From the NCBI GenBank assembly GCA_000934665.2, contig KZ537999.1:248001-312000 (forward strand): a stretch of 64,000 bases of DNA. The letters run 5' to 3'. The stretch is from Catajapyx aquilonaris (taxonomy: Eukaryota). The number at the start of each line of letters is the position of its first letter. Position 1 is the stretch's first letter. The translations under genes and the position numbers were made by a program. Below, piece after piece: positions 910 through 55,547 of the stretch. Under the pieces are notes generated by a model. That model worked only from the letters and a program-made list of their open reading frames with translations. It ran no database searches and was not told where the DNA came from.

Positions 910-3900
910 ATGGCTTCGGCGAGTTCACCCATGTTTGGAATCGACCTGGGCACTTCCGAGTCCAGAATCGCAGTGTGGAAGGATGGACAAATCCAGGTTA
1001 TTCCTACCGTGAAAGGACAACTTTATACACCCAGTTACGTCACTTTTACTGGCCAACACATTTTAGCTGGAGACGACGCCAAAAACCAGGTTAGCATGCT
1101 GGTTTAGCTTCAACTTTCAAGCAGTTCATGACCTGCCGGTTTCAGGTTTCAAACCCGGAAAACACTGTGTTTTACGTCAAGCGTCTGATTGGAAGAGATG
1201 GCGACGGCACTCTACCAGGAACCACCAAATTCCACTGGCCATTTCAAGTCTCGATTATTTCAAGAGAGGCACATATGGTGGTAAGAAAAGGCGGAAAGTC
1301 GGAAACGTACAGTCCTGAACAAATCATGCACACTGTGCTGGATAAAATGCTGAAAGATGCCAAGATGTTCATGAACCTCGAAGTGAACCGCGTCGTAATG
1401 ACTGTTCCCACTTATTTCAACGAGGACCAACGAGAACGAGCAACAATGAATGTGGCTAAAATGGCCAAAGTCAACTTGATTCATGTGATCGACAGCAGCA
1501 CAGCGGCTGCCCTTGCTTACTGCTTCAGAAAGAACCTGAAGGACGCGGAGAACATCTTGGTGTACGACATGGGCACATATGTGTTCCAGGCAGCCTTGCT
1601 GAACGTGAAGGACCTCAACCCGGAAGTGGTTGCTAGCGATAATTTCCATAATCTAGGAGGCAGAAACCTGGATCAAGGTCTGCTGTCGCACTGCTTCGCT
1701 GCTATTATGAAGGACAGTAAGTTAGACTTGAGGAATGACATCGAGGCCAGATGGAAGTTGTTCCCAGCTTGCGAGGAAGCTAAGAAAAAATTGTCGTTTC
1801 AAAACGAGACGATTATCCGAGTTGATAATCTCTGCAAGGACTATAATTTCAACTTCAAGGTATTATGTAAAGCCTATACTTTGTATAGCTGTGGATATGT
1901 TGTCATAATATTATTGCCCTCTCGCCGTTCCAGATATCTCGACAAAAATTCGAATCACTCAGCTCAGAAGTGATTAAGAAAACTCTCAGCGTAGTGGGAG
2001 ATGTATTGTCGACGGCTAAGGTTGAAAAGAGCAAAGTAAAACACGTGGTCCTTGTGGGTGGTTCCTCACGAATACCCAAGTTGAGGGAGGTGGTAAAGGA
2101 TTACTTTAATTTGAAAGAGTTGGACCACTTCATCGACCCAGAGGAAGCAATCGTGTATGGAAGTGCTGTGCAAGGTGCACTTCTGAACAAAAGCATAAAA
2201 ATCGAAGATATGAGGAAGGTTTGTTAGTGCGGTACCGTACCTTTGCCTAAGCATCGAAAGTTTTTTTTCTCGGCAATATATGATTTTCAGATGAGTTCAG
2301 AAAATAGGCAACCACATGTGCCCAATATTCCAAAGAGCAACATGCCCGGAAGAGGACCAGCTGTGGGCATAGATTTGGGCACCACATGTTCGTGCATTGC
2401 TGTGTGGAAAGAAGGCCGTGTAAACATATTGTTCAACGACCATGGTAATCGAGTGACGCCAAGTTACGTCTCGTTCACCGAAGAAGAGAGGCTTGTAGGA
2501 AACCCAGCCAAGCAACAGGTCAGATGCTGAGTAAATTTGAGACTTAATTTCGTTTAAATGAATGCATATTTCAGATGCTAATGAAGCCTGAGAACACTGT
2601 GTTTGATGCAAAACGACTGATTGGGCGTACTTACAATGACCCTGAAACTCAGAACGACATTAAATCCTGGTGTTTCCGGGTAGTAGATGAGGCTGGTAAA
2701 CCCCGCATTGAAATTAAATACCAGAGAGGGAGGAAAAGGTTTTATCCTGAGCAAATAAGTTCAATGGTTCTGGCCTATTTGAAGCAGACAGCCGAGTCTG
2801 CTTTGAGAACAGAGGTGACCGACGCAGTGGTGACCGTACCTGCTTACTTCAACGACGCCCAAAGACAAGCGACCAAAGACGCGGCACAGATAGCTGGTCT
2901 GAACGTCCTCCGAATAATAAACGAACCGACAGCAGCAGCCATTGCCTACGGATTGGAAAACAAGGCGATGGAAGAGCGTACAGTCCTGGTGTACGATCTC
3001 GGAGGAGGTACATTCGACGTCACTGTTCTGACCATCGAAGACTTGACCTTCAAAATCAGGTCGACATGCGGAGACACCCATTTGGGAGGCAGAGACTTTG
3101 ACAACCGAATGGTGGACTTTTACGTCAAAATGTTGAAGACGAAGCAAAATACGGACATTTCAAGCGATCGCAGGGCCATGCAACGACTGCGTGTTGCGTG
3201 CGAGGAAGCGAAAGAAGCGCTCTCAAGTAGCACGTCTTCATACGTCGTTGTGGACAACATTTGCAATGGAATTGACTTAAACCATAAGGTGTGCTTTAAA
3301 AAGGAAAGTCACCATTTTAATAACGTCTCTTTACTTTCTTGCACTTTATTTTGCAGTTGACAAGAAACAGGTTCGACGACCTCTGTTTGAGCCTGTTTCG
3401 AAAGACGTTGGATATTGTACAACAAGCTCTTTCTGATGCAAAAGCAGACAAGAAGGACATTCATGACGTGGTTTTGGTTGGCGGTTCCACTCGCATACCA
3501 CGGATACAGGCCATGGTCAAGGAGTTTTTTAACGGAAAAGAACTCTGCAAGAATGTTCATCCTGAGGAATCGGTGGCCATCGGAGCTGCTGTTCAAGCCG
3601 CTGTCCTCAATGGTGGTCCCAAAGACCCTCGAATTAATAGAGTGGCGCTAGAGGATGTGATCCCGATGTCTCTTGGGATACAAGCCGAAGGACATAAAAT
3701 GGTGCATATCCTTAAAAAGAACACCATGATTCCCTGCAAAAATTCAAGGATGTTTACAACAGTTCAACACGACCAGAATCTAATTCCCATACGTGTGAGT
3801 AATACAGAATGTTGTTCAATTTGCTACAAATCATTAAACTAGTTTTGTCAACAATATGTTAGGTTAGTCAATGTTTATTCTAAGCTATATACTATAACAG

Positions 3901-4422
3901 TTAATATTTTTCCAGATATATGAAGGGGAGAACGACGAGACGGAAGAAAACAACTTTCTGGATTTATTTACCTTGAGTGGCTTATCTCTGAAACCTGCAG
4001 GGGTCCCTAAATTTAGGGTGACGTTTGAAGTTGACGAAAATGGCATTCTCAACGTCACCGCAGTCGAAACCACGTCAGGCCAAACTAACAAAGTAACCGT
4101 TACAAATTCAAGGGTACGATTCAGCCAAGAGCAGATTGAGCAGATGAGACGGGAAGATGAGAGACTCAGAGAAGCAGACAGAAAAAGAAAGGCTCAACAA
4201 CTTGCCAAGAGTGAATTGGAAAAATACATATTCTCTGCCAAGGAAGAATTGGAAAGCACATCTGCTGTTAAAGCCAGTTCAAAAGTACAGATGAAGCGCA
4301 TGAAAGAAAAATGCCTCTCGCTATTGGATTGGATCGAGGAAAACCCACTGGCAGGAAAGGAAGTGTTTGAGAAGAAATTTGACATGTTTAAGAAAGAATG
4401 GTTGAATTTTAAGCGTAAATAA
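910..4422 (+). CDS. Locus A: double-NBD HSP70 fusion (altered NBD + near-canonical HSP70, ~1021 aa, no EEVD)
   Basis: Exons 910-1089, 1146-1859, 1934-2218, 2291-2518, 2575-3288, 3357-3794, 3916-4422; all introns GT-AG, phase 0. Two GIDLGT motifs and two VLVGGS[ST]RIP motifs. The second NBD has IINEPTAAA and DLGGGTFD. A 72-nt intron (2219-2290) joins ...EDMRK to MSSENRQ...GIDLGTT in frame. Confidence 0.8.
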
Positions 4423-4604
4423 AAAATTTGAGACTAACACCAAACATGTTGTGGCTGGATTTGACCTAATATAAATTTTGTTGGAATATTTACACATAAC
4501 TTCATCCTCATGTTGGTTGCATGCAGTATTATTAAAAGTTCAGATAGCTTATTCAAAGGCGACTAAATAATGTTCTGCATTACGCAATATCTCCAGGGGA
4601 AATA

Positions 4605-7151
4605 TTATTGCTTTATTATTATGCCCAACTTATTCGTCACATTTTGCACATTTGCTTTGAACTCATCCAGCTTAGAAATAAATTCACTTTCTTCGGCCAG
4701 CTCGTTGTCGTCAATAAAGTCTAGAACCATGGCGCACTCATTCGTCACCTCTTGCCTCTCCTTTTGAGGCAGTTTGTCACTGCCCAATTCTTCCGCCGCT
4801 TGCTTCACAGTGTACGCATAATTTTCCAGAACCATTTTGGCCTCGTCTCGTTTTCTCCTTATGAGGTCCATGTCGCGAAATTTTTGCAGGTCTCCCTTCA
4901 TATTTAACATTTCGTCCCCTTGATGATGGGTCACCGTATAGTGCCTTTCGCCAACCGCTGCTTCTGAAGATTTGATATCCAAAATTCCGTTGGAATCCAC
5001 CCTGATCACCAGTTCAGTCATACCATTTGAATAATTATTGCGGGTATTGACTGATTTTTTGGGGTCTTCTACCTGTAACAATATTGAAGCGACCTAATAA
5101 TAATGCGCAAGTAACAAAATGTCAAAGTGTAATAATATTATTAGTGTGACAGATTCATAAAGGTGCTCCACTGCTCCTAATTGCTAACACTGCGAGCGCA
5201 AGCACCATACGAAGCAACCAACATTGAAATAGTCATTTTTGTAAAGCAAATCATGTTACTTACACGTACTGTGACGTCCACAAGTTTCCTTCCTACATTT
5301 TTGTTTGTAGTGATTTGACCGTAGCTAATCCCCGCGTTTTTCTCAAAGATTTGCATGATCCCTTTGTTAAAGTTTATATCCAGATTTAAACTGACCTCCT
5401 CACTCTTCAAGCTCTTATTGCAGTACAACACGACGTCCGAATTGCTTGGAAGTCTCTGGCAAGCAGTTAAGTCGATGAAGTCGTCATTTCTAATGTCGTT
5501 AGTTAAACATTTGGAATAACAACCCAGCTGCTCTCGCGTCATGGCTGCAACTAACCTGTACTGATTAGGATCATTTTCCGTCTCCGCAAAATGACCTGCC
5601 CAGGAATTTACAGGGCTGACTATCCTGTTGTCTACATCTCCAATCACCGCAGTTTCCTTGCAAGTGTCATTTTCGTTATTTGGAAATGAAAAGCTGTGTT
5701 CAGTTATTATCGATTCATCCACAGACTTCGCATCCATTTCTTTCGTGGCCTCGAAGCTACTGTCAAAAAGACTGGTTTTTCTCAAAGGATAAGCCAATGA
5801 TTCAATAATTTCGGTTTTTTGGTAGGGCCCATAGAGAGTGCTGGGCACTTGGTTTGCAACATGTCCGCCAACAATGGCCGCCCCACGGGCAACCGCTTCC
5901 TGAGGGTCTATGCACTGGTCCAGCTCTGTCAACTGGAAGTAATCCTTCACCATCTCTCTCAACTTTGGTATTTGGGTTGACCCACCAACCAGGATAACGT
6001 GCTCTATTTGACCTCTTGTTACATCGGCTTTTCTTAATGCACGTTCCACTACACTCAACGTGGTGGAGAAAGTGTCGATGCACATCTCCTCAAATTGATA
6101 CCGAAAAATCTGTGGATATAAGACAAAACTGAGAAAATTAAAAATGGCAGCAGTAATATATTTCTTTGCTACAATTCGTAAGCAAATAATGTAATAGTAC
6201 AGTGTATACCTTACGTGTGAAATTGCGGTTCTGGTAGAGATTGTTAACTTGTATTGTACTCTCATCTTGATAAGACAATGTTTTCTTAGCATCCTCACAG
6301 GCTGGGTAGAGTTTCCAGTGGAGCTTAATATCACTCGAATCCACATTATGATATTCCCGAATTATTTCCAAGCAATGTGACACTAGGAGTCGATCCAGGT
6401 TTATGCCTCCCAGATTAATGTTATTGTCGTATGCAACCATTTCCGGAATAAAATCCTACACCTTCATCACCGACACTTCGAAAGTGTATGTTCCCATGTC
6501 GTAAACCAGCACAAGACAAGTATCCTTTAGCTTTTTCTCGTAGCAGTAAGCAAGAACAGCCGCAGTAGAGTTGTCTATGACACGAAGAAGATTGATTTTG
6601 GCAATTTGCGCCACCTTGTTCGCTGCTTGATTTCGTTGAGCCTCGTTGAAATAATTAGGAACAGCCATCACAGCGTCGGTAGCATCGAGACCGAAGAATA
6701 TTTTCACATACCTCAGCATTTTTCTCAGCACAATAAACATAATGTATTCTGGACGGTACTTGTTGACCTTTCGATCATTTTCAATTGAAATTCGTGCTTC
6801 TCCATTATTAATCGACACGTGAAACGGCAAGGTCTCATTACGCTGACTAATCAGACGCCTCACATCAAAGATGGTATTTTTCTGGTCATCTCCAATCTGT
6901 AATGAGAAACAAAATGTCACGTATCACATAATTCGTTTAATAATAGAAAAAAGAGCAAACCCAACCTGTTTCTTGGCTAACTGTCCGATGAAAACTGTGT
7001 CTCCCATGAAAGTTACGCAGCTGAACATGAAGCGTTTCTCCCTATTGTAATAGTTCGGAATCAAATGCACATTTCCATTTTCCCAGGCCGCAATTCTGGT
7101 CTCAGAAGTCCCCAAGTCGATTCCAAGCACTGGAAATATCGGAGGTTCCAT
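4605..7151 (-). pseudogene. Locus B: altered-NBD HSP70-like gene with in-frame TAG
   Basis: Exons 7151-6966, 6896-6210, 6109-5264, 5072-4605. Motifs [27 protein letters not shown]. Reads VMKV*DFIPEMVA with TAG at 6456-6458, where paralogues read NVKD[LF]xPE. Confidence 0.8.
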
Positions 7152-7775
7152 TTCTTCAGAGGAGTATCACCTGCTCGAAATATTTCTTGAAAAATGCTGC
7201 GACAAAGTTATAGACCCAACACCTGTTCTTTCCATAATGCTAGATGACAATCTGACAAATTCTTTTTTCTCTCGTGTTATCTCTTCACCATAGCAACGAG
7301 ATGCGATTGGCATTTAGATAACAGTAGATAATGATTGGAAATTATGAGAAAGTCGTCCAAGGGTATTTCACGGATGTAGACTGGAGTAAATAATACTTTA
7401 CAAGTTTACATAGTGTCTACTCCGCTGTTACTGGCATTTCTCATCTTGACATTTTGGACTTGCATTGGGCCAAGGTAGCCATAGAATGATATGAACTACT
7501 AACTCAGTCTTTATAAGCAGTACAGATGCACTTTTCAACAGATGGGTGGATATTATACGAGTCGTTGACAAGAGACAACTGATCAGAAACCTTTATTTAT
7601 CACCGTACAAAAATGCAATATGCTTTGAAAATGGTTTACCGCTTACAATAACTCATGCATTGTTATACATTATAACAGGATCTAACATTAAAAAGTGAAC
7701 AGCTTGCAAATAGTGCAAATAATTCATTTTTCAAGTTATTTAAAAAAATGATAAAAGCAGTTGAAGTGCATTGTG

Positions 7776-10400
7776 TTACAGGTTTGGATGTAACAAAGGT
7801 TGGAATTTCTCTTTGATTTCTTCCAGCTTTGCTTCGAATTCGGTTTGGCCACACTCTTTGCTTTCGTCTATAAAGTGTACCATTTGATCACACTCATCCT
7901 TCATGAACTGCTTATCATTTTCGGACAATGTGGATTCTTCTTCCAACTCATGCTTCACGAAGTACACGTAGCTTTCCAACTCAGTTTTGGCCATGTCTCT
8001 ATTCCTCCTAACCGATTCTGTTTCGCGAATTCTGTTCAGCTCTTTCTTCATTTCTGAAAGGTTAGTTTTCCTTAACTTCTCCGCTTCGTTCTCGGTGATT
8101 ATGCTGAAGCTTCGGTCGGGCAGAATTTCGGCTGCTATCACGTCGACAATTCCACTGACATCGACACTGCAAGTGACGTCTCTGATTTTCTTCAAGCGAT
8201 TGCCCTCGTCCAATGCTGAGTCTCGTATTAGTTCCTGAAACTTAATGGAAAAGTAAATACAGGCTAACACTGTAAACATTATTTTACCACATAGACGCAC
8301 AGACCACATATTATGCGTGTATTAGACTTACAGGTAAAGTGATGTTTAACAGGCCTTCTCTGCTCTCGCACTTAATGCTGTTGGAAGAAATCCGCATCTT
8401 ATCCATCCCAATGTTCAAAACTCCTCCAGTATACTTTACATCCAGAGGTAAACGTCCTTTATTACTCTCACTCCTGATTCTGCTGCTTTGGTCAACTTCA
8501 TTATTACTGCTTGTAATTTCTTCCTGACCTGTGCTGATGTCGGCACCTTTGGCTTCGTTGACACTTTCGACTGTCTTGTCACAAACGTCTTTGGAAGTAT
8601 TTTCTGATGGCCTAGTCTCTGTGTTACTGCCATCAGCCATGGGATCTTCCATGAAGGAAATTGTATACTCGTGGAAGGCTGCTGGATCTTGGCCCTGTCT
8701 GTTTTCTCGAAGCTGAACATTTCCGTCACCTTCCGCGGCCTCGGCTGACCTTTCGTCTGGTACGTCCGTTTCTGGACTTGTCTCCTGTCTGATGTCACCT
8801 TCGGCTGAAGATTGCTCGTGACTGGGAACTGCTTGATATTGGCCCTTCTTCTTCGACTTCTTTCTAGGCCAACGGAGGCAACAACACCCAGTTGGAGAAG
8901 AACCACCTCTTACATCTCCCGTATCGTCTCTGCTCATACTTTTATGCAAAAGACCACCTTGAACAGCAGCCCCGTACACAACTATTTCCTGCGGATCTAT
9001 GCTCTGGTCCAGTTCCTCCAAATGGAAATAGTTCTTCACCATCTCCCTCAGCTTTGGTATGTGCGTCGATCCACCTACCAGGACAACGTGATCTATTTGA
9101 TCTCTTTTTATTCCGGCCTTCGCTAACGCTTGTTCCACTACATCCAGCGTTGCATCGATCAGGTCAGTGCATATTTCTTCTAAATGATGTCGGGAAATCT
9201 GTGGATATGAATAAACAATTAATAAGCAACATTCATGAAGAAGCAAGAGTTCGTTCTTAGCTATCGACTGAGGAATAAGTTACAATACGAGCTGCCTAAT
9301 GGTTGAAATGAAATGGGAAATAAAATTCTTCCCATAAAAATACTGACGCACCTTTATTTATTAACTGTATGGCTTACTGTACCTTGCAGGTAAAGTTGTA
9401 GTTCTTTCCGATATTTTTAATCTCTATAGTAGTCTCATCTTGCGAGGAGAGAGTTTCCTTTGCATTCTCGCAAGCTAGGAAAAGCTTCACCAGCGTGGCG
9501 ATGTCGTTATTCAAATTATGCCTTTTCTCCTGCTGCATCAACGTCAAGCAATGCGACATAAGCCATTCATCCAGATATTTACCTCCAACCTGGATGTCAC
9601 TCTCATGGGCAACAATTTTGGGGTTGAAGTCCTTCACGTTCAGGACGGACACTTGGAATGTGTATGTGCCCAGGTCATACACCAGAACAAGACCAGGGTC
9701 TTTAAGATCCTTTTTGAAGCAGTAGGCAAGGGCAGCAGCAGCGCAATCGTCGATGACTTGAAGTATGTTGATCCTGGCTAAGGCTGCAACCTTGCTTGTT
9801 GCTTGCTTTCGTTGGACCTCGTTGAAATATGTTGGCACCGCCATTACTGCACTGGTCACTTTGACACCCATAAATTCCTGAGAATCTTTCAACATTTCTT
9901 CTAGCACCCAGAAAAACAGGCGTTCTGGATGATATTTTTGAGTCTTTCCTCTTATCTTCACTTTAACATATTCTTCTCCTTTGACAGCAGATACTGGAAA
10001 CGGCCACTTATTTTTGCTGATTTTTGCAAAGGGGCCGTCATTGCCCCGCACAATGAGGCGTTTCACGTCAAAGAAAGTGTTCTCCGGATTGTAGATCATC
10101 TGTAAAAGAATAATTATTAAAACGTGCTTGTACAATCAGAGCCGGATCAGAGATACGCCGTATTAAAATCATATCGTCTTCTGGGACAGTTACATGGTAG
10201 GAATGCAAAATAACCTTTTCCTTGGCGAAGTTTCCGACATAAGTGGTAGTATCTGCGCACAAGACGTAACTGGGTGTGAAATGTTTTTCTGTGTCGTAGT
10301 TGCTGGGAATGAGCTTGACAATTTCGTCCTTCCATACAGCTATTCTGGACTCCGACGTGCCCAAATCTATTCCAAACACTGACGTCACCCCATACGCCAT
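7776..10400 (-). CDS. Locus C: altered-NBD HSP70-like protein with disordered linker, degenerate SBD and lid (~742 aa)
   Basis: Exons 10400-10215, 10099-9383, 9198-8332, 8234-7776. Motifs [34 protein letters not shown]; lid AKTELESYVY. Confidence 0.82.
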
Positions 10401-11879: not shown

Positions 11880-14346
11880 CTATTTCATTCTCGAGTACTC
11901 CTCCAGCTTCAATTGTTGGGATTCCACTTCGCTCTTATCCGCGTACTCGTTGGACTCTAACCATTCCAGCACCTCTTCGCATCTCTCCATCACCGCCTCG
12001 TTATTGGGCAAGTTTCTAACATTCTGCTTCAAATCATGAACATATTCTTCCAGGTTGACCCTTGCAGTGGCCCGATCCCTCTTCTTCTGGTCTTCCTTGC
12101 AGAATTTCTCAGCATCACTGATCATCTTCTCTATCTGTGCCTGGCTGAGCCGGCCCTTCTCGTTTTGGACGGTCACGTTGTTGGTGATTCCAGTGGACGT
12201 GTCCACGGATGTGACAGTCAGGATTCCATCCACGTCAATGGTGAAAGTGGTTTCAAGTTTAGCTTTGCCCCTGGGAGCAGGATGAATGCCCATGAGATTG
12301 AAGGAGTCCAGAAGGTTGTTGTCCTCGGTCATGGGCCGCTCACCCTCGTATATCTTGAATAGGAAATGGGTTCAAGTGTAGTATAAAATAAAGGACTGCA
12401 GATGGTCTTATGGGATTTACCTTAAAGTCCACTCCTATTTGATTGTCTTTGCTGGTTGAAAACGACCTTGCCATTTCGCAAGGTATTGGGGTGTTCCTCG
12501 GGACTACCACGGACATCATTCCTCCCACTATGTCGACTCCTAGAGACAAAGGGGTCACGTCCTCCAGCAGCACCTCGCTGATGTAGTTGGCGTCCTCCGC
12601 GTCTGTGATGTAATTCTCCTGTTCCGCATCTGTCATGAAGTCACTGAAGTTTCCACTGATAGCCACTGCTTCTATGGCAGCCCCGAAGGCAACAGCTTCG
12701 TCCGGATGTATGCTCTTGCACGGCACTTTTCCTCCGAAGTAATCAGTCACCATCTTACGTATCTTGGGAATACGGCTCGATCCTCCGACCAAAACGACGT
12801 CGTCGATCTGACTCTTGTCCAGCTTGGCGTCCTTCAACGCTGATGCGACTCTGTCCATCGTCTTTCGAAAGAGGTCCTTGCATAGATCTTCGAATTTGGC
12901 TCGGCTTATCTGTTGGATATGTCAGAGAAAGAAGGTACTGCCTGTTGTAATATTCACGAATGTTGTAATTCATCTAGAAAAACTCTTGGGCTACGTGTTT
13001 AGCAGCTGATCGTTGCAATATTATTATAAGCGAATATACAAGATATTGTTTTAACAAAGCAGTGGCAGTGATCAGGATAAATGCGCAGCTTATATAGCAG
13101 GAATTTTCCAGTGTGTATCTAAATAGAATTTATAAGTTAATAGGTGCGCCTATAGTACCAAATAATTAATGGGGCCGCTGTGGGTCTTTACCCTGGAGTT
13201 TTAGCAAATCACCTATCATCGTACACAACAGTAACGTCCTCTGGCGAAAGTTCCAATATATAAAAAGATCCCTATTACTCTTGGGACGTGCTTAGGACAC
13301 ACTGAAAAATTATACACACCCTTTGAGCAAAGTCGATATTACTGCAAATGTTGTCCACTATCACAGGAGCCTCATTCACGCTCGACAAGGTCCTCTTGAC
13401 CTCCTCGCAGGCGGTACGGAGACGTCGCAGTGACTTTGGCTCTTTTGTGAGGTCTTTACCATGAGTCTTCTTGAACCCTTTGACAAAGTGGTCCAAAATA
13501 CGATTGTCAAAGTCTTCTCCTCCCAGATGGGTGTCTCCATCAACTGATAGTACTTTCAGATGGGGGCCCTTGATGGTCAGCACTGAAACGTCGAATGTTC
13601 CTCCTCCGAGGTCGTACACCAGGATGTTGTTGGCCTCCTTCAGCTTCTTGTCCAATCCGTAGGCCAAGGCTGCTGCTGTCGGCTCGTTTATTATTCGGAG
13701 GACGTTCAGACCAGCGATCTGTCCAGCGTCCTTCGTGGACTGTCGTTGGGCGTTATTGAAGTAAGCAGGTACCGTCACCACTGCATCTGTCACCTCCATG
13801 CCCAGGTATTTTTCGGCCGATTCCTTCAGACTGCCCAAAACCATGGCGCTAATCTCTTCAGGGTGGAACCTTTGCTTTAATCCATCGTGCTTGACCTCTA
13901 GGAGAGGTTTATTTTTCTCATTTACGACGCTGAAGTTCCACAGCTTGATGTCGCCTTGGACCAGGGGGTCGTCGTAGGTCCGACCAATAAGGCGCTTTGC
14001 ATCGAATATAGTGTTTCTCGGGTTCACCGCCACCTACAACAAGATAAGGCAGGAGATCATTAACCTGAATGTCCTTTTCATGCTTACGTATTCACTGCAT
14101 TAATACAAGTACATATGGAGTAGCACTAAATCGCACGACAATTTTATTGGTTACGGTACTCATTCTCACCTGCGCCTTGGCTGCGTCTCCGATCAGTCTC
14201 TCTGTCCCAGTGAATGCGACGTAACTAGGTGTCACCAACTTTCCATGCTCGTTCGGAATGATCTGAACCTTTCCTTTCTGCCAGACACCCACGCAGGAAT
14301 AAGTGGTTCCCAAATCTATCCCAATAACTGGAGCTTTTATGGACAT
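11880..14346 (-). CDS. Locus D: near-canonical HSP70 family protein (~617 aa, no EEVD)
   Basis: Exons 14346-14170, 14033-13320, 12909-12421, 12353-11880. Motifs [61 protein letters not shown]. Confidence 0.9.
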
Positions 14347-16469: not shown

Positions 16470-19042
16470 TCAAAATTCCGAAGCACTACATGCAGCTGAA
16501 TTTGAGTTAGGGCGAATAAAAAAACGTAACAACAAGAAGCAGAACAAGAAGAACACGATGTTGAAAAAATTCATTGGTGAAAATTGTTGTGTGGTCATTC
16601 TCGAGTACTCTTCCAGCTTCAATTGTTGGCGTTCCACTTCGTTCTTTTCAGCATCATCGTTGGACTCTAACCATTCCAGCACCTCCTCGCATCTCACCAT
16701 CACCGCCTCGTTATTGGGCAAGTTTCTAACTTTCTGCTTCAAATCATGAACATAGTGTTCCAGGTTGACCCTTGCAGTGGCCCGATCCCTCTTCTTCTGG
16801 TCTTCCTTGCGGAACTTCTCAGCATCACTGATCATCTTCTCTATCTGTGCCTTGCTGAGCCGGCCCTTCCCGTTTTGGACGGTCACGTTGTTGGTTATTC
16901 CAGTGGACGTGTCCACGGATGTGACAGTCAGGATTCCATCCACGTCAATGGTGAAAGTGGTTTTAAGTTTAGCTTTGCCCCAGGGAGCAGGAGGAATGCC
17001 CATGAGATTGAAGGAGTCCAAAAGGTTGTTGTCCTCGGTCATGGGACGCTCACCCTCGTATATCTTGAATAGGAAATGAGGTCAAGTGTAATATAAAATG
17101 AAGTACTGCAGATGGTGTTATAACTGTTATTAGATTTACCTTAAAGTCCACTTCTATTTGATTGTCTTTGCTGGTTGTAAACGGGCTTGTCATTTCGCAA
17201 GGTATTGGGGTGTTCCTCGGGACTACCACGGACATCATTCCTCCCACGATGTCGACTCCTAGAGACAAAGGGGTCACGTCCTCCAGCACCACGTCTCTGA
17301 TGTAGTTGGCGTCCTCCGCGTCTGTGATGTAATTCTCCTGTTCCGCATCTGTCATGAAGTCATTGAATGTTCCACTGATAGCCACTGCTTCTATGGCTGC
17401 CCCAAAGGCAACGGCTTCGTCCGGATGTATGCTCTTGCACGGCACTTTTCCTCCGAAAAAATCAGTCACCATCTGACGTATCTTGGGAATCCTGCTCGAT
17501 CCTCCGACCAAAACCACGTCGTCTATTTGACTCTTGTCCAGCTTGGCGTCCTTCAACGCTGATGCGACTCTGTCCATCGTCTTTCGAAAGAGGTCCTTGC
17601 ATAGATCTTCGAATTTGGCTCGCCTTATCTGTTGGATATGTCAGAGAAAGAAGCTACTGCCTGTTGTAATATTCACGAATGTTGTAATTCACCTAGAAAA
17701 ACTCTTGGGCTACGTGTTTAGCAGCTGATCGTTGCAATATTATTATAAGCGAATATACAAGACATTGTTTAACAAAGCAGTTGCAGTGATCAGGATAAAT
17801 ACGCAGCTTATATAGCAGGAATTTTTTAGTGTGTATCTAAATAGCATTTATAAGTTAATAGGTGACTATAGTAAATATATTTATGGGGACGCTGCGGGTC
17901 TTTACCCTGGAGTTTTAGCAAATCACCTGTCATCGTACACAAAGGTAACGTCCTCTGGCGAAAGTTCCAATAAATAAAAATATCCCTATTACTCTTGGGA
18001 CGTTCTTAGGACACTCTGAAAAATTATACAGACCCTTTGAGAGAAGTCGATATTATCGCATATGTTGTCCACTATCACAGTAGTCTCCTTCACGCTCGAC
18101 AAGGTCCTCTTGACCTCCTCGCAGGCGGTACGGAGACGTCGCAGTGACTTTGGCTCTTTTGTGATGTCTTTACCATGAGTCTTCTGGAACTCTTTGACAA
18201 AGTGGTCCAAAATACGATTGTCAAAGTCTTCTCCTCCCAGATGGGTGTCTCCACCAACTGACAGTACTTTCAGATGGGAGCCCTTGATGGTGAGCACCGA
18301 GACGTCGAATGTTCCTCCTCCGAGGTCGTACACCAGTATGTTGTTGGCCTCCTTAAGCTTCTTGTCCAATCCGTAGGCCAAGGCTGCTGCTGTCGGTTCG
18401 TTTATTATGCGAAGGACGTTCAGACCAGCTATTTTCCCTGCGTCTTTTGTGGACTGTCGTTGGGCGTCGTTGAAGTAAGCAGGTACCGTCACCACTGCAT
18501 CTGTCACCTTCATGCCCAGGTACTTCTCTGCCGATTCCTTCAGACTGCCCAAAACCATGGCGCTGATCTCTTCAGGGTGGAACCTTTGCTTTGCGCCATC
18601 GTGCGTGACCTCGAGGAGAGGTTTATTTTTCTCATTTATGACGCTGAAGTTCCATAGCTTGATGTCGCCTTGGACCAGGGGGTCGTCGTAAGTTCGGCCA
18701 ATAAGGCGCTTTGCATCGAATATGGTGTTTCTAGGGTTCACCGCCACCTGCAGGATATGGCAGGAGATCATTAACGTCCTTTTCTTGCTTACAATATTCA
18801 CTGTATATTAATACATATGGAGTAGCACTAAATCACACGACAATTTCGTGGGTACTCATTCTCACCTGCGCCTTGGCTGCGTCTCCGATCAGTCTCTCTG
18901 TCCCAGTGAATGCGACGTAACTAGGTGTCACCAACTTTCCATGATCGTTCGGGATGATCTGTACCTTTCCTTTCTGCCAGACACCCACGCAGGAATAAGT
19001 GGTTCCCAAATCTATCCCAATAACTGGAGCTTTTATGGACAT
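16470..19042 (-). CDS. Locus E: recent duplicate of D with a replaced hydrophobic C-terminal extension (~657 aa)
   Basis: Exons 19042-18866, 18747-18034, 17628-17140, 17063-16470. Nearly identical to D including introns; diverges after EEYSRM into [26 protein letters not shown]... Confidence 0.85.
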
Positions 19043-19699: not shown

Positions 19700-21344
19700 T
19701 ATATATAAAGCCCCTAAACGAGGAGGAGGAGGATACGTAGGAGGAGGAGGATGGAAAAGATTTCGCACTTCCCGGCGTCGCAGAGACGTCGGACTTACGC
19801 CGTTGGATTCCTTGCACCCGGTTTCCTGTTTTCAAAAATCCTCATAATCGCCAAATTCCCAGCCGTTTTCGAGATCGCCAAATTAAATGTAGACGCAAAC
19901 CCGAGATCGCGAAATTAATGTATATCCGCCAACTCCCCCGGTTCCCCGAGAACAATAGCCCACCCCCTTCTCTCCCCTCTCCTCTCCAGCCGCTGTCACT
20001 CAATCCAGCCGGTGAAGTTCGTTAAAGCCCGAGAACAATAGCCCAATCCATCACCCGCTGACAGCTCCATTCACTCATCCCACCTAGCCTTTTTTCATGA
20101 TACGTCACCTAGGGCGCATTTTAATACTCCACAGCTTTGTGGACCGTGACGTCACGGGTTCTGTAACCGGATGGATTAGGCGGAACATGGTCACTCCGTT
20201 GACGACGAACTCGAGGTTATTATTTCCAGCTCTCTAGCGGTGCTGGGTACGCCCGGGCGGGAAGGCGCGCCAATTGGGGCGCAGCCCCAAGGGGGGGTGT
20301 GGGGGGGCGGAGCCCCCCCGCCTCGCAAAGCGAGTCTAATATATATAAAGCCCCAATCCGAGGAGGATATAGGATGGAAAAGATCTCCCACTTCCAGAGG
20401 TCGTACAGACCTCGGACTTACGCCGTTGGATTCCTTGCACCCGCTTTCCTATTTTCAAAAATCCTCAAAACCGCGAATTTCCCAGCCGTTTTCGAGATCG
20501 CCAAATTAAATGTAGACGCAAACGCGAGATCGCGAAATTAATGTATATCCGCCAACTCCCCCGGTTCCCCGGGCGGCCAACAGACGAGCACCACTATCGC
20601 ATTGCCTCCACCACCCACAATAACCTCCCGCTTCCCCCGGCGCCCCCCCCCCCCCNCCTCGAATCCTCCTCCCCTACTCAACGCCTCCACTACGTCATCT
20701 GTTATTGCGTCATGTTGCCTTTTACTCGCACCTCTATTGGTGACGTCACGGGTGTCCTGTGAACATAGATGCCACATTGCCACCTCGTCCGACCAATTTT
20801 TGCGGAGTGTCGGAGGAAGTGTGTGGCGGCCGGCTGCACTTGCACTGTTGTTTGTGGGGCGCGCTCATTGTCGTTGGTTGATTGGCTGGTTGGTAGGTAG
20901 GTTGATTGTTGCAGGTGTGGTATTTGTCATGCTTCATTGGTGACTCCGTTGACGACATACTCCACGTTATTGTTGCCAGCCCTGTAGTGGTGATCCTGGT
21001 ATTTGTCATGCTTCACTGGTCACTCCGTTGACGACAAACTCCAGGTTATTGTTGCCAGCCATGTAGTGGTGATCCTGGTATTTTCATGCCCCTCTGGTCA
21101 CTCCGTTGACGACGAACTCCAGGTTATTGTTGCCAGCCCTGAAGTGGTGGTCCTGGTATTTGTCATGCTTCATTGGTGACTCCGCTGACGACGAACTCCA
21201 GGTTATTATTTCCAGCTCTCTAGCGGTGCTGGGTAAGTGGGTAGGCCCGGGCGGGAACGCGTAGCGCCGAAGGCGCGCCAATTGGGGCGCAGCCCCAAGG
21301 GGGGGGGTGTGGGGGGGCGGAGCCCCCCCGCCTCGCAAAGCGAG
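19700..21344 (+). mobile_element. Non-autonomous Helitron-like (rolling-circle-type) element, head-to-tail dimer
   Basis: Absent from the duplicated empty site near 15060. Two units both start TATATATAAAGCCCC and end with hairpins TTGGGGC-GCA-GCCCCAA, GGGGGGGC-GGA-GCCCCCCC and CTCGC-AAA-GCGAG. Flanked by TCCAA; internal junction TCTAA. Family assignment is inference. Confidence 0.65.
20919..21232 (+). repeat. ~79-bp minisatellite (about 3.7 copies) inside the insert
   Basis: GGTATTTGTCATGCTTCA...CTCCGTTGACGAC...GTTATTGTTGCCAGCC recurs at about 20919, 20998, 21077 and 21155. Confidence 0.9.
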
Positions 21345-21955: not shown

Positions 21956-22022
<67 letters not shown>

Positions 22023-22073
22023 TTCTTCTTCTTCTTCTTCTTCTTCTTCTTCTTCTTCTTCTTCTTCTTCTTC
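21956..22073 (+). repeat. Compound microsatellite (TTA)n(TTC)n
   Basis: Directly visible trinucleotide runs. Confidence 0.97.
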
Positions 22074-22191
22074 TCATCGGCTATAAAGAAATATGAAGAA
22101 TGCAGACTCTCAGAAGTCATAATATATTAAACTCTTATGTCTTTAGGTTTCTCCGCAGCGCATAATCTTGTGGTACATTACCATCGTTAAA

Positions 22192-25100
22192 ATGGCAGAC
22201 GTTCCGAGAGGAAATGAAAAAATTGATAGAAAGGCAGAAATAACACCCATGTTTGGAATCGACTTGGGCACGTCTGAGTCCAGAATGTCTGTGTGGAAAG
22301 ACGGAGAAGTAAAGCTCTTGCCTAACTGGCGGACGGAAAAAACATTCACGTCCAGTTATGTCACATTTATGAGCAACAAAAGAGGCGTTGGAGAGTTTGC
22401 CAAAACATGTGTTAGTCTGACTCTTCGATAATGGAGTGTGCGTAATGTGACGCTTTTTACAAAAGATTCTCTCACTCTTGGTTACAGGTGGGATGGAACA
22501 TGAAGAACACTGTGTTTGACGTGAAACGTCTGATTGGACGAGAGGTGGACGATTCGTCTCAACCATTATTCCCGTTGCCGTTTCAAGTGTCTCTCAGAGA
22601 AGGAAAAGTACAGGTTGAAGTTGAGAAATACAAGGAGCTGAAAGCGTATTACCCAGAAGACATTATGTTCAAATTTTTGAAGAGAATGTTGGAAAATGCG
22701 CAGGAATTTATGAAACTCCAAGTGAGCCACGCCGTAATGACAGTACCTGTATATTTCAACGAGGCTCAGCGAGAGCAGGCGACGAACAGTGTCGCCAGAA
22801 AGTCCAAAATCGAACGGATTCACGTCATCGACAATCCAACAGCTGCTGCTATAGCCTACTGCTACGCAAAAGAGATAAAAGACGCTGGTCTGGTGCTGGT
22901 GTATGACCTAGGGACCTACACAACAGAAGTGTCGGTGATGAATGTGAAGGACTTACACCCTGAGATGGTGGCAAGCTCCAATAATGCAATTCTAGGAGGC
23001 AGAAACTTGGATCGAAGTCTATTATTGCACTGTTTGATGGTGATAATGAAGAAACATAACCTTGACTTTGCGAATGACAATAATAGCAAATGGAGGCTAT
23101 TGCTGGCCTGTGAGGAAGCAAAGAAAACCCTGTCCTCGGAATGTGAAGCCACGATAAAAGTTAACCATCTTTGCACGGGCTTGAATTTCAATTGTAAGGT
23201 ACGTTACGTATAAAGCAGTAGTTTATACTATGTCGTAGAAGACGATTTCAAAACAGGTACAGTAGGTATTGGAAATAATATTAAGTATATAAACGTGTAT
23301 CTAATTGAGGCGTGGATGGGTAGAACTCGGTTTGTCCAAAAATGGCCTTTTTTAAAAGTTCGTGCACTAACTGGATACTAGTGGCACCTACCGAGCGGGC
23401 TGGAAAGGTTTGGTAAGGAAAAACACAGTTTCCCCACCTCAAAAGGCGGATTAAAGTGTAGGCGATTCCTGAAGAACTTGACATGTCCACCGGTTTTTCC
23501 TTGAAAAACTCAATTTGTCCATATGTAACGTAAAAACACTACTTGTCAATCCGCACCGGGAATTTGTATCAACTCGTATAGAAGTGTTGTGCAGTATTTA
23601 CACGGTTGTTTCTTTGACATCAGTAAGTATTAGACATAGTACTTGACAAAATGTGTTTTTTTGTAATATGTGTTGGAAGGAGGCTATAATAAAAGCTATT
23701 GATACATGTAAATTTACAGTAAGTTTTGTATTTAATATATTCCTGTTCATACCAAATGCACTCACATACACTTCAGGGTGTTGAAAAACAATGTCACCAT
23801 GATCTGACCTGAAAGGGAGATCTTAAACAGTTTTCCTTGATTATCTCAAAACTGATATTTTGGACAAAGCGGTTCTTCCCATCCATCAATTAATTATCAT
23901 TGCATTAATGCAATTATTTCGTGTTAAATCAGTAATAATTATTATACTTCATATTAATAGTACAGTGGTAAAAAATTAATGGAGAAGCTTCACGTAGCGG
24001 AAAACCTCCGCCAGGAGGCGCCACTTGTGCTTCTCCATTAATTTCCATCACTGTACATTATTAGACTATTGGTCGTCATATCTCTGCATAATTTCATAAG
24101 GAATAAGCTCGTTCGCAAGTTCATTTCTTAAAAGGAAGGATATGGTTTACTTTAATTTTTAAACATCACGTTATACAGTAGGCTATATATCTTCTTGATT
24201 AATTTCAACAGATTTCTCGACAAGAATTTGACGACATGTGCACAGACAAGATAAGGAGTACCCTCAAGGTAGTGGATCAAGCACTCTCCAATGGAAAATT
24301 AAGCAAAAGTGAAATAAAGCACGTGGTCCTTGTGGGTGGTTCAACCCGAATTCCGAAGGTGAGGGAGACGCTGAGGGATCACTTCCAGATGAGAGAGCTG
24401 GACCAGAGCATCCCTCCAGAGGAAATCGCTGTGTACGGAGCAGCAGTGTACGGTGCCCTCTTGAATGGAACCATAGAAGGTCACGGGAGTTGTTGTATGT
24501 CGGGGACAGCACCGGCTAAATCAGCAAATGCTCCTGCACTCGTAGATGAAAGTGAGTCACAGAGAAGTGACATCCGGGATGCCATAGGAATTAGTGACAC
24601 ATATGAATCTGGGAACACACGTGAACACGCTAAAGACCTCTCTACGCCCAATGAACAGAGAGGAGATGAGGGCGCTGTAACTCTTGTGGAGGATAGTCGC
24701 GGAATATCTGGCTTACCTGTCCCCTGCAGCACAATTACATCAGAGAAAGGTTTGCGGATTACCAACCGCGCTGGTTTGGAATGAATATGTTCAGTAATCG
24801 ACCGGTTTTTTCGCAGATCCTGAGAACAGTGAAAACAGTCAGAGCAGCGAGGATCACTTCCAGTTGGATATAACATACAAGGAAGGAAATTTGCGAATTT
24901 GTAAGAAAGATATGACGGCTGAATGGGACAAAGCTGTCAAAAAATTAAATGAAAAACAGATCACCTTCACTATAACTGTAAGTAACACGCATTGAAATAA
25001 TTTTTGTCGAGTACGTTTAACATTTATGCAGTTACAGCGAGATCCACCTGAGGGAGCAGGAAACAATGCTAATCAATTGAATCGCAACATTGAAGTAATA

Positions 25101-25475
25101 TTCCATGCGTATTACAACGGAATGCTTCACTTTAAATCGAGCGTTGACCAAGACAATAATGAAGCAGACGAGCCGAGGGAAAAGGCATTGTCAGTGATGC
25201 ATTGTGAAGCTAAGGAACTCCGGGAAAAGGAAGAATCGAAGAGAAGAAGTGACATTGCAAGGACAAAATTGGAGACTTATGTGTACAACGTCAAGCAGAC
25301 GGTGGAAGTTGACCAAAATTTGTCCACGAATATGAAGCAAATGGTGGAGAGTGCGTGCTGCCAGATGTTGGACTTCATCGAAGAAAACCCGCTGGCCACT
25401 AAAGACAACTTTGAATCTGAGCTGGAAACATTCCAAAAAAGGTTCGGTACATTGTTGAAGTCGACGAGAAAGTAA
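22192..25475 (+). CDS. Locus F: altered-NBD HSP70-like protein with linker, degenerate SBD and lid (~690 aa)
   Basis: Exons 22192-22410, 22488-23198, 24212-24749, 24817-24977, 25032(or 25038)-25475. Motifs [46 protein letters not shown]; lid ARTKLETYVY. Extra phase-1 intron 24750-24816 restores frame. Confidence 0.8.
23307..23887. mobile_element. MITE-like TIR element in intron 2 of locus F
   Basis: Left end GAGGCGTGGATGGGTAGAACTCGGTTTGTCCAAAA and right end TTTTGGACAAAGCGGTTCTTCCCATCCATC are imperfect inverted repeats; both flanked by AATT. Confidence 0.65.
23963..24053. mobile_element. Short Tc1/mariner-type MITE
   Basis: TA|CAGTGGTAAAAAATTAATGGAGAAGC...GCTTCTCCATTAATTTCCATCACTG|TA: inverted arms, CAGT termini, TA flanks. 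Confidence 0.65.
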
Positions 25476-26399: not shown

Positions 26400-28911
26400 A
26401 TGGCTTCTGCGAAGGAACATGTTGTTGGCATTGACCTGGGCACCTCCGGGTCCAGAATCGCAGTGAAGAAGAAGGGAAAAGTTCAGCTCATTCCCGACTA
26501 CCAAACAAAACGTTCTTCCATTCCCAGTGTCGTCTCCTTCATCAACTACAATGAAATTTCCGTTGGCGAACCCGCCCAAAAACAGGTCAGACTGAGAATT
26601 AGGGCTACCATAATATATTATTATCATTATTATTCAAGTTACATAACTGCAGGTTCCGAACATCCAATTGCAGATGGGCAAGAATTACACTGTGTTTGAC
26701 ATGAAGCGTCTGATTGGAATAGAACAAAACAGTGCCATTCTACCTGGGGAAAGATGTTACTGGCCTTTTCAAGTGTCTTTCACTGAGGGAAGAGCAGCGA
26801 TTGCTGTGGATATTAATGGCATTCAGCATGAGTACACGCCTGAAAGAATCATGTCCTGGGTGTTGGAAAAAATGTTGGAAAATGCCAAGAAATTTTTGGG
26901 TGTTCAAGCGACCCAGGCGGTAATGACTGTGCCTACGTATTTCGACGATATCCAACGATATCAAGTGACTAATGTAGTTGCGGAAATGACAAATATCACT
27001 CCTATTTACGTCATCGATGAATGCAGGGCGGCTGCACTTGCCTACTGCTACAAAAATAATATCAAGGACGCAAGTCATGTTCTGGTGTATGGCAGATTAG
27101 TGCAATGGTTCTGGCCAATTTGAAGGAGACAGCTGAGAAATGTCTGAGGACGAAGGTGACCGATGCAGTGGTGACGGTACCTGCTTACTTCAACGACGTC
27201 CAAAGACAGGCGACCAAAGACGCGGGACAGATCGCTGGTCTGAACGTCCTCCGAATAATAAACGAACCAACAGCAGCAGCCATTGCTTACGGATTGGAAA
27301 ACAATTCGAAGGAAGAGAAAAACGTGTTGGTGTACGATCTCGGAGGCGGAACATTCGACGTCACATTGCTGACCATCAAAGGTCTGACCTTCACTGTCAG
27401 GTCGACAAGTGGCGACACCCACTTGGGAGGGAGAGACTTTGACAACATGATGGTGGATTTCTACGTTGACATGTTGAAGAATAAACACAACAAGGACATA
27501 ACCCGGAACCACAGGGCCATGCAAAGATTGACAGTGGTCTGCGAGGATGCCAAGCAAGCTCTGTCCAGCACTACAAAGACAGACGTTATTGTAGACAACA
27601 TATGTGATGGATTCGATTTGAAACACAAGGTATACTTTCAGGTAAAAATAGTGACACACTTATATGTCACCCAATTCTTTGATTACTCTCGCAGTTTTCA
27701 AGAAACAGATTCAACGACCTATGCAAGAAACTGTTCCAAAGGACACTTGACATTGTGCAGCAAGCGCTTTCAGACGCCAAACTAGAAAAAGACGAGATTG
27801 ACGACGTGGTATTGGTGGGAGGTTCTACTCGAATCGTGAAGGTAGAGGAAATGATCAAGGACTTTTTCAATGGTAAAGAGCTCTGCAAGAACGTGAATCC
27901 CGAAGAAGCCGTTGCCTTCGGAGCTGCAGTGCAAGCAGCTGTCCTTCATGGGGATGGCAAAGGTCACCTCATAAACAAAGTGGTACTGGAGGACGTACTT
28001 CCCATGTCCCTGGGAGCCAGTGTTGATGGAAATGAAATGGTGGTGATCTTAGAGAAGAATACCAAAATACCATGCAGAAAATCCAGCGTATTTGATATGG
28101 ACAAAGGAGGCGAGGGGAATATTTCTATGCGTGTGAGTATCACTCAATATTATTTTGTACATGTCATGTAATTACGTATAGTATGAAAATTATGAGGCAT
28201 TTGTCCAAACAAAATATCACAGTAAAACCTGTATAATACCAAAATGGCACATTTTCGCAGTCAGATAGAAGTTTCTGCTATACCCGAGATCTGCTATAGG
28301 CAGGGTACGATGTAATTCGCAGTCAAGAAATTTAAAATTGTCAGTTGTAATGGAGTGGTGGTTCTATTTTTCAGGTGTTTGAGATAGAGAATTACGAAGC
28401 ACAGAAAAACAACCTTCTTGCTTCGTTTAACTTGGGAAGATTACCAACTAAGTCAGGAAAATCCAAGATTGTTGTGGCTTCTTCCATTGACGAGAATGGC
28501 ATTCTCAACGTCACAGCGGAGACCATGACAGGTCAAAGTATGAACATGACCATAAATAGAACAAAGGGAGGGTTCAGCCAAGAAGAGATTGACCAGATGA
28601 AGTTGGAAGAGGAGAGCCTTAAAGTAGGAGAAAGAAGGATCAACGAACAATTTGCTTTGGAAAATTTCATATATTCCATTAAAGAAGAACTGGAAAGTAC
28701 ATCATCTGCTGCATCAAAGTCAATGTCAGAAAAACAGAAAAATCTTTTAATAGAAATGTGCAATTCCCTTTTGGAATGGATAGAGGAAACCCCACATACA
28801 GAGAAGGAACAGTTTGAAAAGGAATTGAGCAATCTTAAAGAAGTGTGTTTAACCTTCAACTTGCAAACTGTGTATAAGATTTCAAATAATGAAGGTACAT
28901 CTTCTGCATAA
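26400..28911 (+). pseudogene. Locus G: second double-NBD HSP70 gene, frameshifted by an internal deletion
   Basis: Exons 26400-26585, 26674-27629, 27695-28132, 28375-28911. Altered-type NBD (GIDLGTSGS...DASHVLVY) switches at ~27091 into canonical-type [11 protein letters not shown]...IINEPTAAA...DLGGGTFD in another frame; the first frame stops at 27123. Confidence 0.8.
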
Positions 28912-48600: not shown

Positions 48601-48898
48601 TGTGTCAGAAATGCGGAAAGAACTGCAGACATTTCGGGACAAAGAAGTGACGATTAAAAATAGGGACGTGGCCAAAACAAATTTGGAGAACTACGTGTAC
48701 AAACTGAAGCAGGCCGTGGAAGACGAATCAGTTGGCACTAAAGTGTCGGAAGAAGAGAAGAAACGAGTGAAGGACGAATGTGAACGAATGTTAGACTTTC
48801 TGGATGAAAACGACATGGCCGAAGAAAGCACATTTGTTTCTGCGCTGCAAGCGTTCAAGAAAATGTTCCGACCATTGGTTCGGATTTTGATAAAATAA
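45676..48898 (+). CDS. Locus M: altered-NBD HSP70-like protein with ~350-aa disordered linker, degenerate SBD and lid (~934 aa)
   Basis: Exons 45676-45858, 45916-46632, 46780-48246, 48461-48898. Motifs [63 protein letters not shown]. Confidence 0.83.

Positions 48899-55484: not shown

Positions 55485-55485
<1 letters not shown>

Positions 55486-55547
<62 letters not shown>
55486..55547 (+). repeat. (CTA)n microsatellite
   Basis: Directly visible. Confidence 0.97.

Follow-up and report, generated by a model that had tools for sequence, protein, structure and literature searches.

The locus at positions 910–4422 of a 64,000-nucleotide (nt) stretch of Catajapyx aquilonaris DNA (assembly GCA_000934665.2, contig KZ537999.1, positions 248,001 to 312,000 of the forward strand; this whole stretch is hereafter the window) raises the question of whether two neighboring HSP70-like coding units on the same strand encode one protein or two. 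The first unit (unit1, 910–2218) consists of three exons that encode 393 amino acids (aa) and are free of stops, according to both our reading of the sequence and the coordinate-based translation. The second (unit2, 2291–4422) consists of four exons that encode 628 aa plus the stop codon in the same translation. Once the 72 nt that separate them (2219–2290) are removed, the two units form a single open frame of 1021 aa. A first-pass annotation had described the units as joined in frame across these 72 nt, from EDMRK/GT to TTTTCAG/ATG, and both the sequence and the translation bear this out. It had further claimed a spliced protein of about 1021 aa, of which the open joined frame stands; the single product is the best-supported reading, with a weak acceptor and an in-frame TAG at 2225–2227 speaking against it. 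The reading to which we give a slightly better than even chance is that of a chimeric gene, which would have arisen through one deletion and would use the 72 nt as a hybrid intron to produce a 1021-aa HSP70 with two nucleotide-binding domains (NBDs), the first of them a putative pseudo-ATPase.

Exon 1 of unit1 (910–1089) begins at ATG 910 and contains the phosphate-1 loop, GIDLGTSES. A 56-nt GT..AG intron (1090–1145), whose position matches that of the unit2 intron at 2519–2574, separates it from exon 2 (1146–1859; 714 nt, 238 aa), which encodes the central NBD, and a 74-nt intron (1860–1933) precedes exon 3 (1934–2218; 95 aa), where the NBD ends with LVGGSSRIP and the last helix. In the Pfam search these exons matched PF00012 at profile positions 2–53, 55–281, and 293–384 only (E = 6.7e-13, 2.1e-50, and 7.4e-26, respectively). 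Unit1 is a complete HSP70 NBD with nothing beyond it; the substrate-binding domain (SBD) and the lid are absent, as the first-pass annotation had stated. An out-of-frame ATG at 905, five bases ahead of ATG 910, opens a short overlapping frame that could lower initiation at 910. Exon 1 of unit2 (2291–2518) comprises a 17-codon linker (2291–2341), which we take to be former 5′ untranslated region (UTR) of unit2 now read in frame, the ancestral ATG at 2342, and the loop GIDLGTTCS. Exon 2 (2575–3288, again 714 nt) encodes the central NBD, with NEPTAAA and DLGGGTFD intact, exon 3 (3357–3794; PF00012 positions 293–433) covers the end of the NBD, the interdomain linker, and the start of SBD-beta, and exon 4 (3916–4422; positions 435–592) encodes the remaining SBD and the lid, ending with a TAA stop at 4420–4422. 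The PF00012 matches of unit2 cover profile positions 1–592 overall (E = 2.3e-20, 8.2e-95, 8.9e-47, and 8e-25), and unit2 is thus a full HSP70 with NBD, SBD, and lid. The first poly(A)-type hexamer past its stop is an ATTAAA at 4531–4536 (+109). All these features are on the plus strand, and the translation shows no stop, frameshift, or lost splice site in either unit. The gap between the units is a GT..AG interval and the only one of the six gaps of the model whose length is divisible by three, the others being 56, 74, 56, 68, and 121 nt long. The TAG at 2225–2227, which the first-pass annotation had left out of its description, is inside it, so that the unspliced unit1 frame ends three codons past the proposed donor.

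The window is eukaryotic DNA taken up almost entirely by a cluster of about 14 HSP70 paralogs in 64 kb, as judged from 14 G[IV]DLGT starts over both strands with matching downstream exons. Trees built on the 238-residue central exon resolved them into four clades: {unit1, B, C, F, K, and the 5′ part of a locus named G}, with support 99/99; {unit2, M, and the 3′ part of G}, near-canonical, 100/99; {I, D, E}, 100/99; and {J, Lg}, 100/100. The common intron positions and the central exon of identical length (714 nt) point to one ancestral gene structure. Since unit1 and unit2 fall in separate clades and show only about 32% identity in the central exon (about 32–50% in protein), they are old, distinct paralogs and not a fresh tandem copy. 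This also bears on whether the locus could be an assembly artefact, that is, two paralogs mis-joined in a repetitive cluster. The presence of some 14 related genes in 64 kb speaks for such an error, but paralogs this divergent are not easily confused, the junction (2219–2341) has no significant similarity to 11 paralog upstream regions, and the window contains a single N, at 20656. We regard a mis-join as very improbable.

The marks of a catalytically competent HSP70 NBD are a catalytic Lys, a Glu within NEP, and the loop sequence DLGGGTFD; in Hsc70 the corresponding residues are K71, E175, D199, T204, and D206. The cluster alignment and the alignment to solved Ssb1 and Hsc70 chains agree that unit1 retains the catalytic Lys (VKRLIGR), has DSS in place of NEP at the site of the catalytic Glu, and has DMGTYVFQ where the phosphate-2 loop, including its Thr, would read DLGGGTFD. 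Three further elements are retained: the Asp in GIDLG, the one in VYDMG, and the adenosine motif GGSSRIP. The altered catalytic motifs that the first-pass annotation had reported for one NBD are thus real, and with the Glu and the GGG-Thr loop lost, unit1 falls outside the motif definition of a competent NBD. From the known roles of these residues in HSP70 and their states in unit1, this NBD probably binds nucleotide and does not hydrolyze it. Changes of the same kind occur in the full-length members of the clade (B, C, F, and K), which argues that the motif loss is a conserved family trait and not decay. Moreover, unit1 has a terminal branch of 0.50 in the central-exon tree, no longer than its counterparts in B, C, F, and K (0.54–0.68), and its N-terminus, MAS..., is similar to those of its clade-mates C and G.

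Both the Pfam match and the comparison with paralog C place the end of unit1 at the NBD boundary, where the interdomain linker of an HSP70 would start. In its clade-mates C, F, and B, the same exon continues past the NBD into a long insert, and C and F further carry SBD-like and lid exons, all of which unit1 lacks. The full-length, ATPase-degenerate paralogs B, C, F, and K lie within 4605–10400 (minus strand), 22192–25475 (plus), and 45676–48898 (plus); in C and F the NBD runs straight into long Ser/Asp/Glu-rich inserts followed by lid-like exons, an overall layout similar to that of Hsp110. The 60 solved chains listed for unit1 are HSP70s such as Ssb1, Hsc70, Hsp70, and BiP, and none of them is named Hsp110, Sse1, or Grp170. 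Unit1 has neither the SBD nor the lid of an Hsp110 or Grp170, and it nests among the HSP70 paralogs of the window itself. On these sequence grounds it is a derived HSP70-type NBD, not an Hsp110.

Unit2 is, as the first-pass annotation had it, a near-canonical HSP70: it belongs to the near-canonical clade, and all its catalytic motifs are intact in the cluster alignment. It does not qualify as a canonical cytosolic HSP70/HSC70, which would have an EEVD tail and high identity to HSC70; the C-terminus reads ...NFKRK and then stop, with no EEVD, and identity to named animal HSP70s does not exceed 64% in the central exon. The ratio of nonsynonymous to synonymous substitution rates (dN/dS) on its terminal branch is 0.14, with a dS of 0.77, while M has a value of 0.17 and the 3′ part of G one of 0.28; as estimated from these substitutions, unit2 has been under purifying selection. 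Together, the branch length of unit1 and the dN/dS of unit2 show long-term constraint on the two sequences and give no date for the rearrangement that placed them side by side.

The case for splicing across the gap begins with its donor. The last codon of unit1 is AAG at 2216–2218, followed by GT at 2219–2220; at the other end of the gap, TTTTCAG at 2284–2290 is followed by ATG at 2291–2293. We scored both sites with matrices derived from 21 local introns, 16 from homology-guided paralog models and five from this locus, after excluding four of the 20 paralog introns modelled by dynamic programming that had doubtful boundaries (both introns of J, the 88-nt intron of C, and the 53-nt intron of Lg). 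The donor, AAG/GTTTGT, scored 8.51 bits, which exceeds 12 of the 21 leave-one-out scores, whose median is 8.12; among 7455 GT sites it ranks in the top 0.89%. Local donors vary widely at positions +3 to +6 (GTCTGT, GTGTGT, and GTTAGC are examples), so GTTTGT is unremarkable among them. Outside known introns, GT sites that score as high as the candidate or higher occur at 3.9e-4 per nt, and the chance of meeting such a donor within 30 nt of the end of the open reading frame (ORF) is p ~0.012. Furthermore, the gap is within the length range of the five neighboring introns (56–121 nt), and the 51 nt between the acceptor and ATG 2342 are a multiple of three and stop-free, with a chance of p ~0.14. 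At the site of paralog C that aligns to the unit1 donor, inside its long open exon (8920–8960, minus strand), the sequence reads GAT/GTAAGA; this consensus-like donor might serve an alternative isoform of C, either NBD-only or exon-skipping.

The signals expected at the beginning and end of a gene are consistent with this splice as well. We scanned upstream of the ATG of 11 other paralogs for 5′UTR introns, allowing a GTRAG donor up to 450 nt and an acceptor up to 120 nt upstream. Ten of the 11 have the donor, and eight have both the donor and a pyrimidine-rich acceptor, 6–94 nt before the ATG, from which we infer an ancestral gene with a non-coding first exon and a 5′UTR intron. The 450 nt upstream of unit2 contain no GTRAG donor, because the coding exon 3 of unit1 fills that place; this is evidence from sequence comparison that unit2 lacks a separate 5′ end. 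The acceptor at 2290, 51 nt before ATG 2342, is placed like the acceptor of a 5′UTR intron. As for the 3′ end of unit1, we found no AATAAA or ATTAAA between its TAG and unit2, and the first hexamer after the TAG is 432 nt downstream, within exon 2 of unit2. When I and M, whose anchors are outside last exons, are left out, the last exon is defined in nine cluster genes. In eight of these (unit2, B, C, D, F, G, K, and the gene with the lid exon at 31704–32210) such a hexamer overlaps the stop codon or follows it within 180 nt, and the miss is E; a hexamer would occur by chance within 180 nt with a probability of ~0.26. Only 64 nt separate the stop of unit1 from the ATG of unit2, whereas other same-strand neighbors are spaced by 624 nt (C to B) and 924 nt (F to G), in line with the remark of the first-pass annotation that there is little room for a promoter. 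Given this spacing and the missing hexamer, a separate unit1 mRNA would have no evident end before unit2. Finally, a stop codon upstream of introns is a setting for nonsense-mediated decay; in a transcript that spans both units and retains the gap, the TAG at 2225 would be upstream of three introns, and the spliced form would therefore be the stable one. It is the quality of the donor, the lack of a poly(A) signal, the 64-nt spacing, and the lack of a GTRAG donor upstream of unit2 that make a single spliced product the best-supported reading, and co-transcription of the two units and use of the 72-nt intron would follow from it.

The same stretch of DNA could instead yield two separate products, an NBD-only protein ending in ...MRKVC at TAG 2225–2227 and unit2 starting from ATG 2342 or 2291. 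Unit2 would then need a start of its own, either a cryptic promoter in exon 3 of unit1 or the spacer, or an operon-like arrangement with spliced-leader trans-splicing at TTTTCAG/ATG. The TAG three codons past the donor fits this alternative, and so does ATG 2342, which keeps a paralog-type leader of eight residues and an A at −3: two paralog leaders, one of them MGPAV, align to the MPGRGPAV that starts there. An ATATAT at 2275–2280 is a candidate for the cryptic promoter, although no perfect three-unit heat-shock element is present in the window, and the 55 two-unit matches in it are near chance, with two at 1368 and 3551 but none in 1934–2341. For trans-splicing, there is a T-run about 25 nt ahead of the acceptor, and the acceptor directly abuts ATG 2291, the classic look of a trans-splice site. 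Trans-splicing occurs in some crustaceans, and an ionotropic receptor-like ORF of the window, described below, has mostly Arthropoda among its nearest Atlas clusters, which is a lead only. Nevertheless, no spliced leader or other Rfam family matched in the window, and in most paralogs GTAAGT-type cis donors are located upstream of the acceptors, which argues that those acceptors are cis-spliced. In addition, unit1 has no poly(A) hexamer before unit2, and only 64–114 nt would have to accommodate both 3′-end formation and a promoter. Two products are, in our judgment, unlikely.

Several observations weigh against a spliced chimera. The acceptor at 2290 scored 1.65 bits on the local matrix, so low that all but one of the 21 training acceptors exceed it and 11.9% of all AG sites match or beat it; by our own count, only seven of the 12 bases before its CAG are pyrimidines. 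As the acceptor matrix is small and derives partly from the similar intron ends of paralogs, we take this result as a real but soft negative. In the alignment with paralog C, the counterpart of the donor GT at 2219 is a Val codon within a long open exon. An inherited donor at this position was rejected, as the exons of C, F, and B read uninterrupted through it; on this comparison the donor is not an ancestral splice site. Nor is the nucleotide similarity of 2150–2365 to the 11 paralog upstream regions above that of shuffled controls, so that the proposal that 2290 is the old 5′UTR-intron acceptor of unit2 draws on positional analogy. A similarity to the UTR of paralog M that we had seen by eye was withdrawn after the same comparison. 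The unspliced frame stops at once, and an NBD-only product is equally encoded. Moreover, our search of sequencing runs listed no RNA run containing 910–4422. Since the rearrangement is undated, the intact frames of both units would also be compatible with a recent event.

A further point against the chimera comes from locus G (26400–28911, plus strand), where a 5′ part of the unit1 clade, made up of exon 1 and exon 2 sequence, is joined to a 3′ part of the unit2 clade. The junction is within an exon and out of frame, with ...HVLVY (27090) abutting ...QISAMVL, which begins at 27093; a stop at 27121–27123 ends the unit1-like frame. The closest relative of unit2 is the 3′ part of G, at 77% identity in the central exon. 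In the tree, the 5′ part of G does not group as sister to unit1; a common ancestor of the two joins was rejected for this reason, and G arose through a join of its own. Members of these clades thus do become joined illegitimately in this cluster, and the result can be dead on arrival. The unit1/unit2 locus might likewise be a non-functional by-product of recombination, with unit1 a dead 5′ remnant, unit2 a promoterless orphan, or both, its frames still intact through recency and its in-frame GT..AG coincidental. The weak acceptor and a donor that is no ancestral splice site fit such an origin. It would leave to coincidence a donor at the end of the ORF and an open in-frame linker, whose joint chance is ~0.002, together with a cut exactly at the NBD boundary. 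It also sits poorly with two units that have no stop, frameshift, or lost splice site, with a unit1 branch that is not lengthened, and with a dN/dS of 0.14 for unit2 against 0.28 for the 3′ part of the broken G. We consider an accident of this kind improbable.

If the locus is indeed a chimeric gene, a deletion or illegitimate recombination within the tandem HSP70 cluster would have removed the 3′ part of unit1, with its acidic insert, SBD, lid, and poly(A) signal, as well as the promoter and non-coding first exon of unit2. The unit1 promoter would then drive transcription across both units, and a GT recruited from the former Val codon at 2219 would be spliced to the old 5′UTR-intron acceptor of unit2 at 2290, turning 17 codons of former 5′UTR into a linker. 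The predicted product would comprise, in this order, NBD1, a spacer of about 35 residues (the C-terminal tail of NBD1, the 17 former-UTR codons, and the eight-residue leader of unit2), NBD2, SBD, and lid, with NBD2-SBD as the presumed working chaperone. For NBD1, three roles are conceivable: exchange module in the manner of Hsp110, regulatory module, or inert appendage.

The first of these roles has a known counterpart, which the first-pass annotation had cited in suggesting that the two units may be a covalently tethered pair of regulator and effector. HSP70 activity is set by contacts of its NBD with exchange factors of the same fold, such as Hsp110. Hsp110/Sse1 has an HSP70-fold NBD whose own hydrolysis is dispensable, and it acts on the NBD of HSP70 through NBD-NBD contact. 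The Hsc70 and Hsp70 partner chains of the Sse1 complexes (3c7n_B and 3d2e_B) are among the solved chains listed for unit1, and the joining of unit1 to unit2 would put two such domains in one chain. Hsp110, however, is not linked to HSP70 in one chain, and it combines canonical ATPase motifs with an SBD, an acidic insert, and a long lid, whereas unit1 has none of these C-terminal parts. A further proposal is that of a tethered pair, in which an NBD that binds nucleotide but is hydrolysis-dead would act in cis on a live HSP70, either exchanging or holding in the way of Hsp110 or inhibiting it until stress lifts the block, and which would form an undescribed two-headed class with at least three independent origins (this lineage, the amphipods, and the lineage of two database proteins described next). 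We hold this to be quite doubtful.

The central exon of unit1 served as the query of a full HMMER scan against 1.84 billion representative proteins, from which the best 150 matches were listed. None of these 150 exceeded 40% identity to exon 2 of unit1, and none provided a relative above 40% identity for the clade of B, C, F, and K either, which suggests that the unit1 clade and the gene models of this genome itself are absent from the library. Eighteen of the 150 are at least 800 aa long and match twice, and we read nine of them. Two (P0005 and P0006) have a degenerate NBD without SBD, a linker, and a full HSP70; three (P0007, P0010, and P0012) consist of two full-length HSP70s in succession, the first of them degenerate; and four (P0001 to P0004) have near-identical repeated halves or segments and look like merged tandem copies. 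Two PF00012 stretches each were found by Pfam in P0005 (1055 aa), P0274 (1028 aa), P0006 (1021 aa), and P0270 (1010 aa).

P0005 and P0274, which are 35% identical to each other, both come from run assemblies, and each is presumably one uninterrupted ORF, given this type of source. Like the proposed fusion, they have a degenerate NBD without SBD, a hydrophilic linker of about 50–80 residues, and a complete HSP70. Their NBD1 phosphate-2 loops are also degenerate (HCGGHTTS and HCGGETTS), but these motifs differ from the DMGTYVFQ of unit1, and the origin is independent. The other two are amphipod models, P0006 from Trinorchestia longiramus (“Heat shock protein 70 family”) and P0270 from Hyalella azteca (HAZT_HAZT007813). 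In them, as in the proposed fusion, a single predicted protein leads from an NBD-like domain, here very divergent, through a linker into a full HSP70, and this layout is common to two genera, with first domains that are 45% identical. They differ from it in that they are automated gene models and their first domain, with a branch length of 3.7, is unrelated to the unit1 clade; that P0006 has the same 1021 aa as the fusion is a coincidence. In the matched stretches, P0005 and P0006 are 34 and 32% identical to exon 2 of unit1, respectively. Their first domains form long separate branches outside the unit1 clade (99/99), so that common descent with unit1 is not supported and the two-NBD architecture appears to have arisen independently. 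Two PF00012 regions also occur in double HSP70 models of plants, fishes, and the pig (for example, P0001 from Papaver somniferum, P0153 from Citrus sinensis, P0164 from Sus scrofa). The halves of P0001, P0003, and P0004 are near-identical canonical copies, as expected of neighbors merged by annotation. Unlike such merged models, unit1 and unit2 belong to old, distinct clades, their central exons being 32% identical, and the first half ends in a clean cut at a domain border.

The two-NBD layout is therefore not unique to this locus, as database proteins with the same layout exist in at least two other lineages, while the portions of articles returned by a full-text literature search held no description of a two-NBD HSP70. 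Should the spliced product exist, a natural chain made of a dead NBD and a live HSP70 would be a ready-made system in which to study an obligatory NBD-NBD contact, and a clear case of a pseudo-enzyme domain reused as a regulator. The locus also illustrates a possible route for the birth of such a protein, through one deletion between diverged tandem paralogs, a cryptic donor, and the acceptor of a former 5′UTR intron.

Besides the chimeric locus, the window contains other features of the cluster. Paralogs D (11880–14346, minus strand) and E (16470–19042, minus strand) are recent tandem duplicates, 5′UTR introns included; these introns are at identical offsets (donor at −152, acceptor at −11), and the C-termini of the two genes differ, with the stop 12 (D) and 52 (E) codons past the last aligned residue. 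Two lid-like exons were found on the plus strand, at 31704–32210 (PF00012, E = 1.2e-7) and at 52118–52573 (E = 2.5e-4, just under the cut-off). Long open frames of 242 and 235 aa, with no Pfam match, precede them, and the resulting stretches (30815–32210 and 51385–52573) may be very divergent relatives of HSP70 without a recognizable NBD. We also found four tandem repeats: a 79-nt unit in 3.9 copies at 20918–21228; (ATT)22 followed directly by (TTC)18 at 21956–22074, just upstream of the ATG of F at 22192; a 72-nt unit in 2.1 copies at 51570–51720, inside the ORF 51385–52089; and (TAC)23 at 55485–55551. The only non-HSP70 gene that we saw in the window is a 430-aa open frame at 40673–41962 (plus strand), with a weak match to the ligand-gated ion channel family PF00060 (E = 5e-4, below the cut-off), whose nearest Atlas clusters are annotated as “probable glutamate receptor” and are mostly from Arthropoda.

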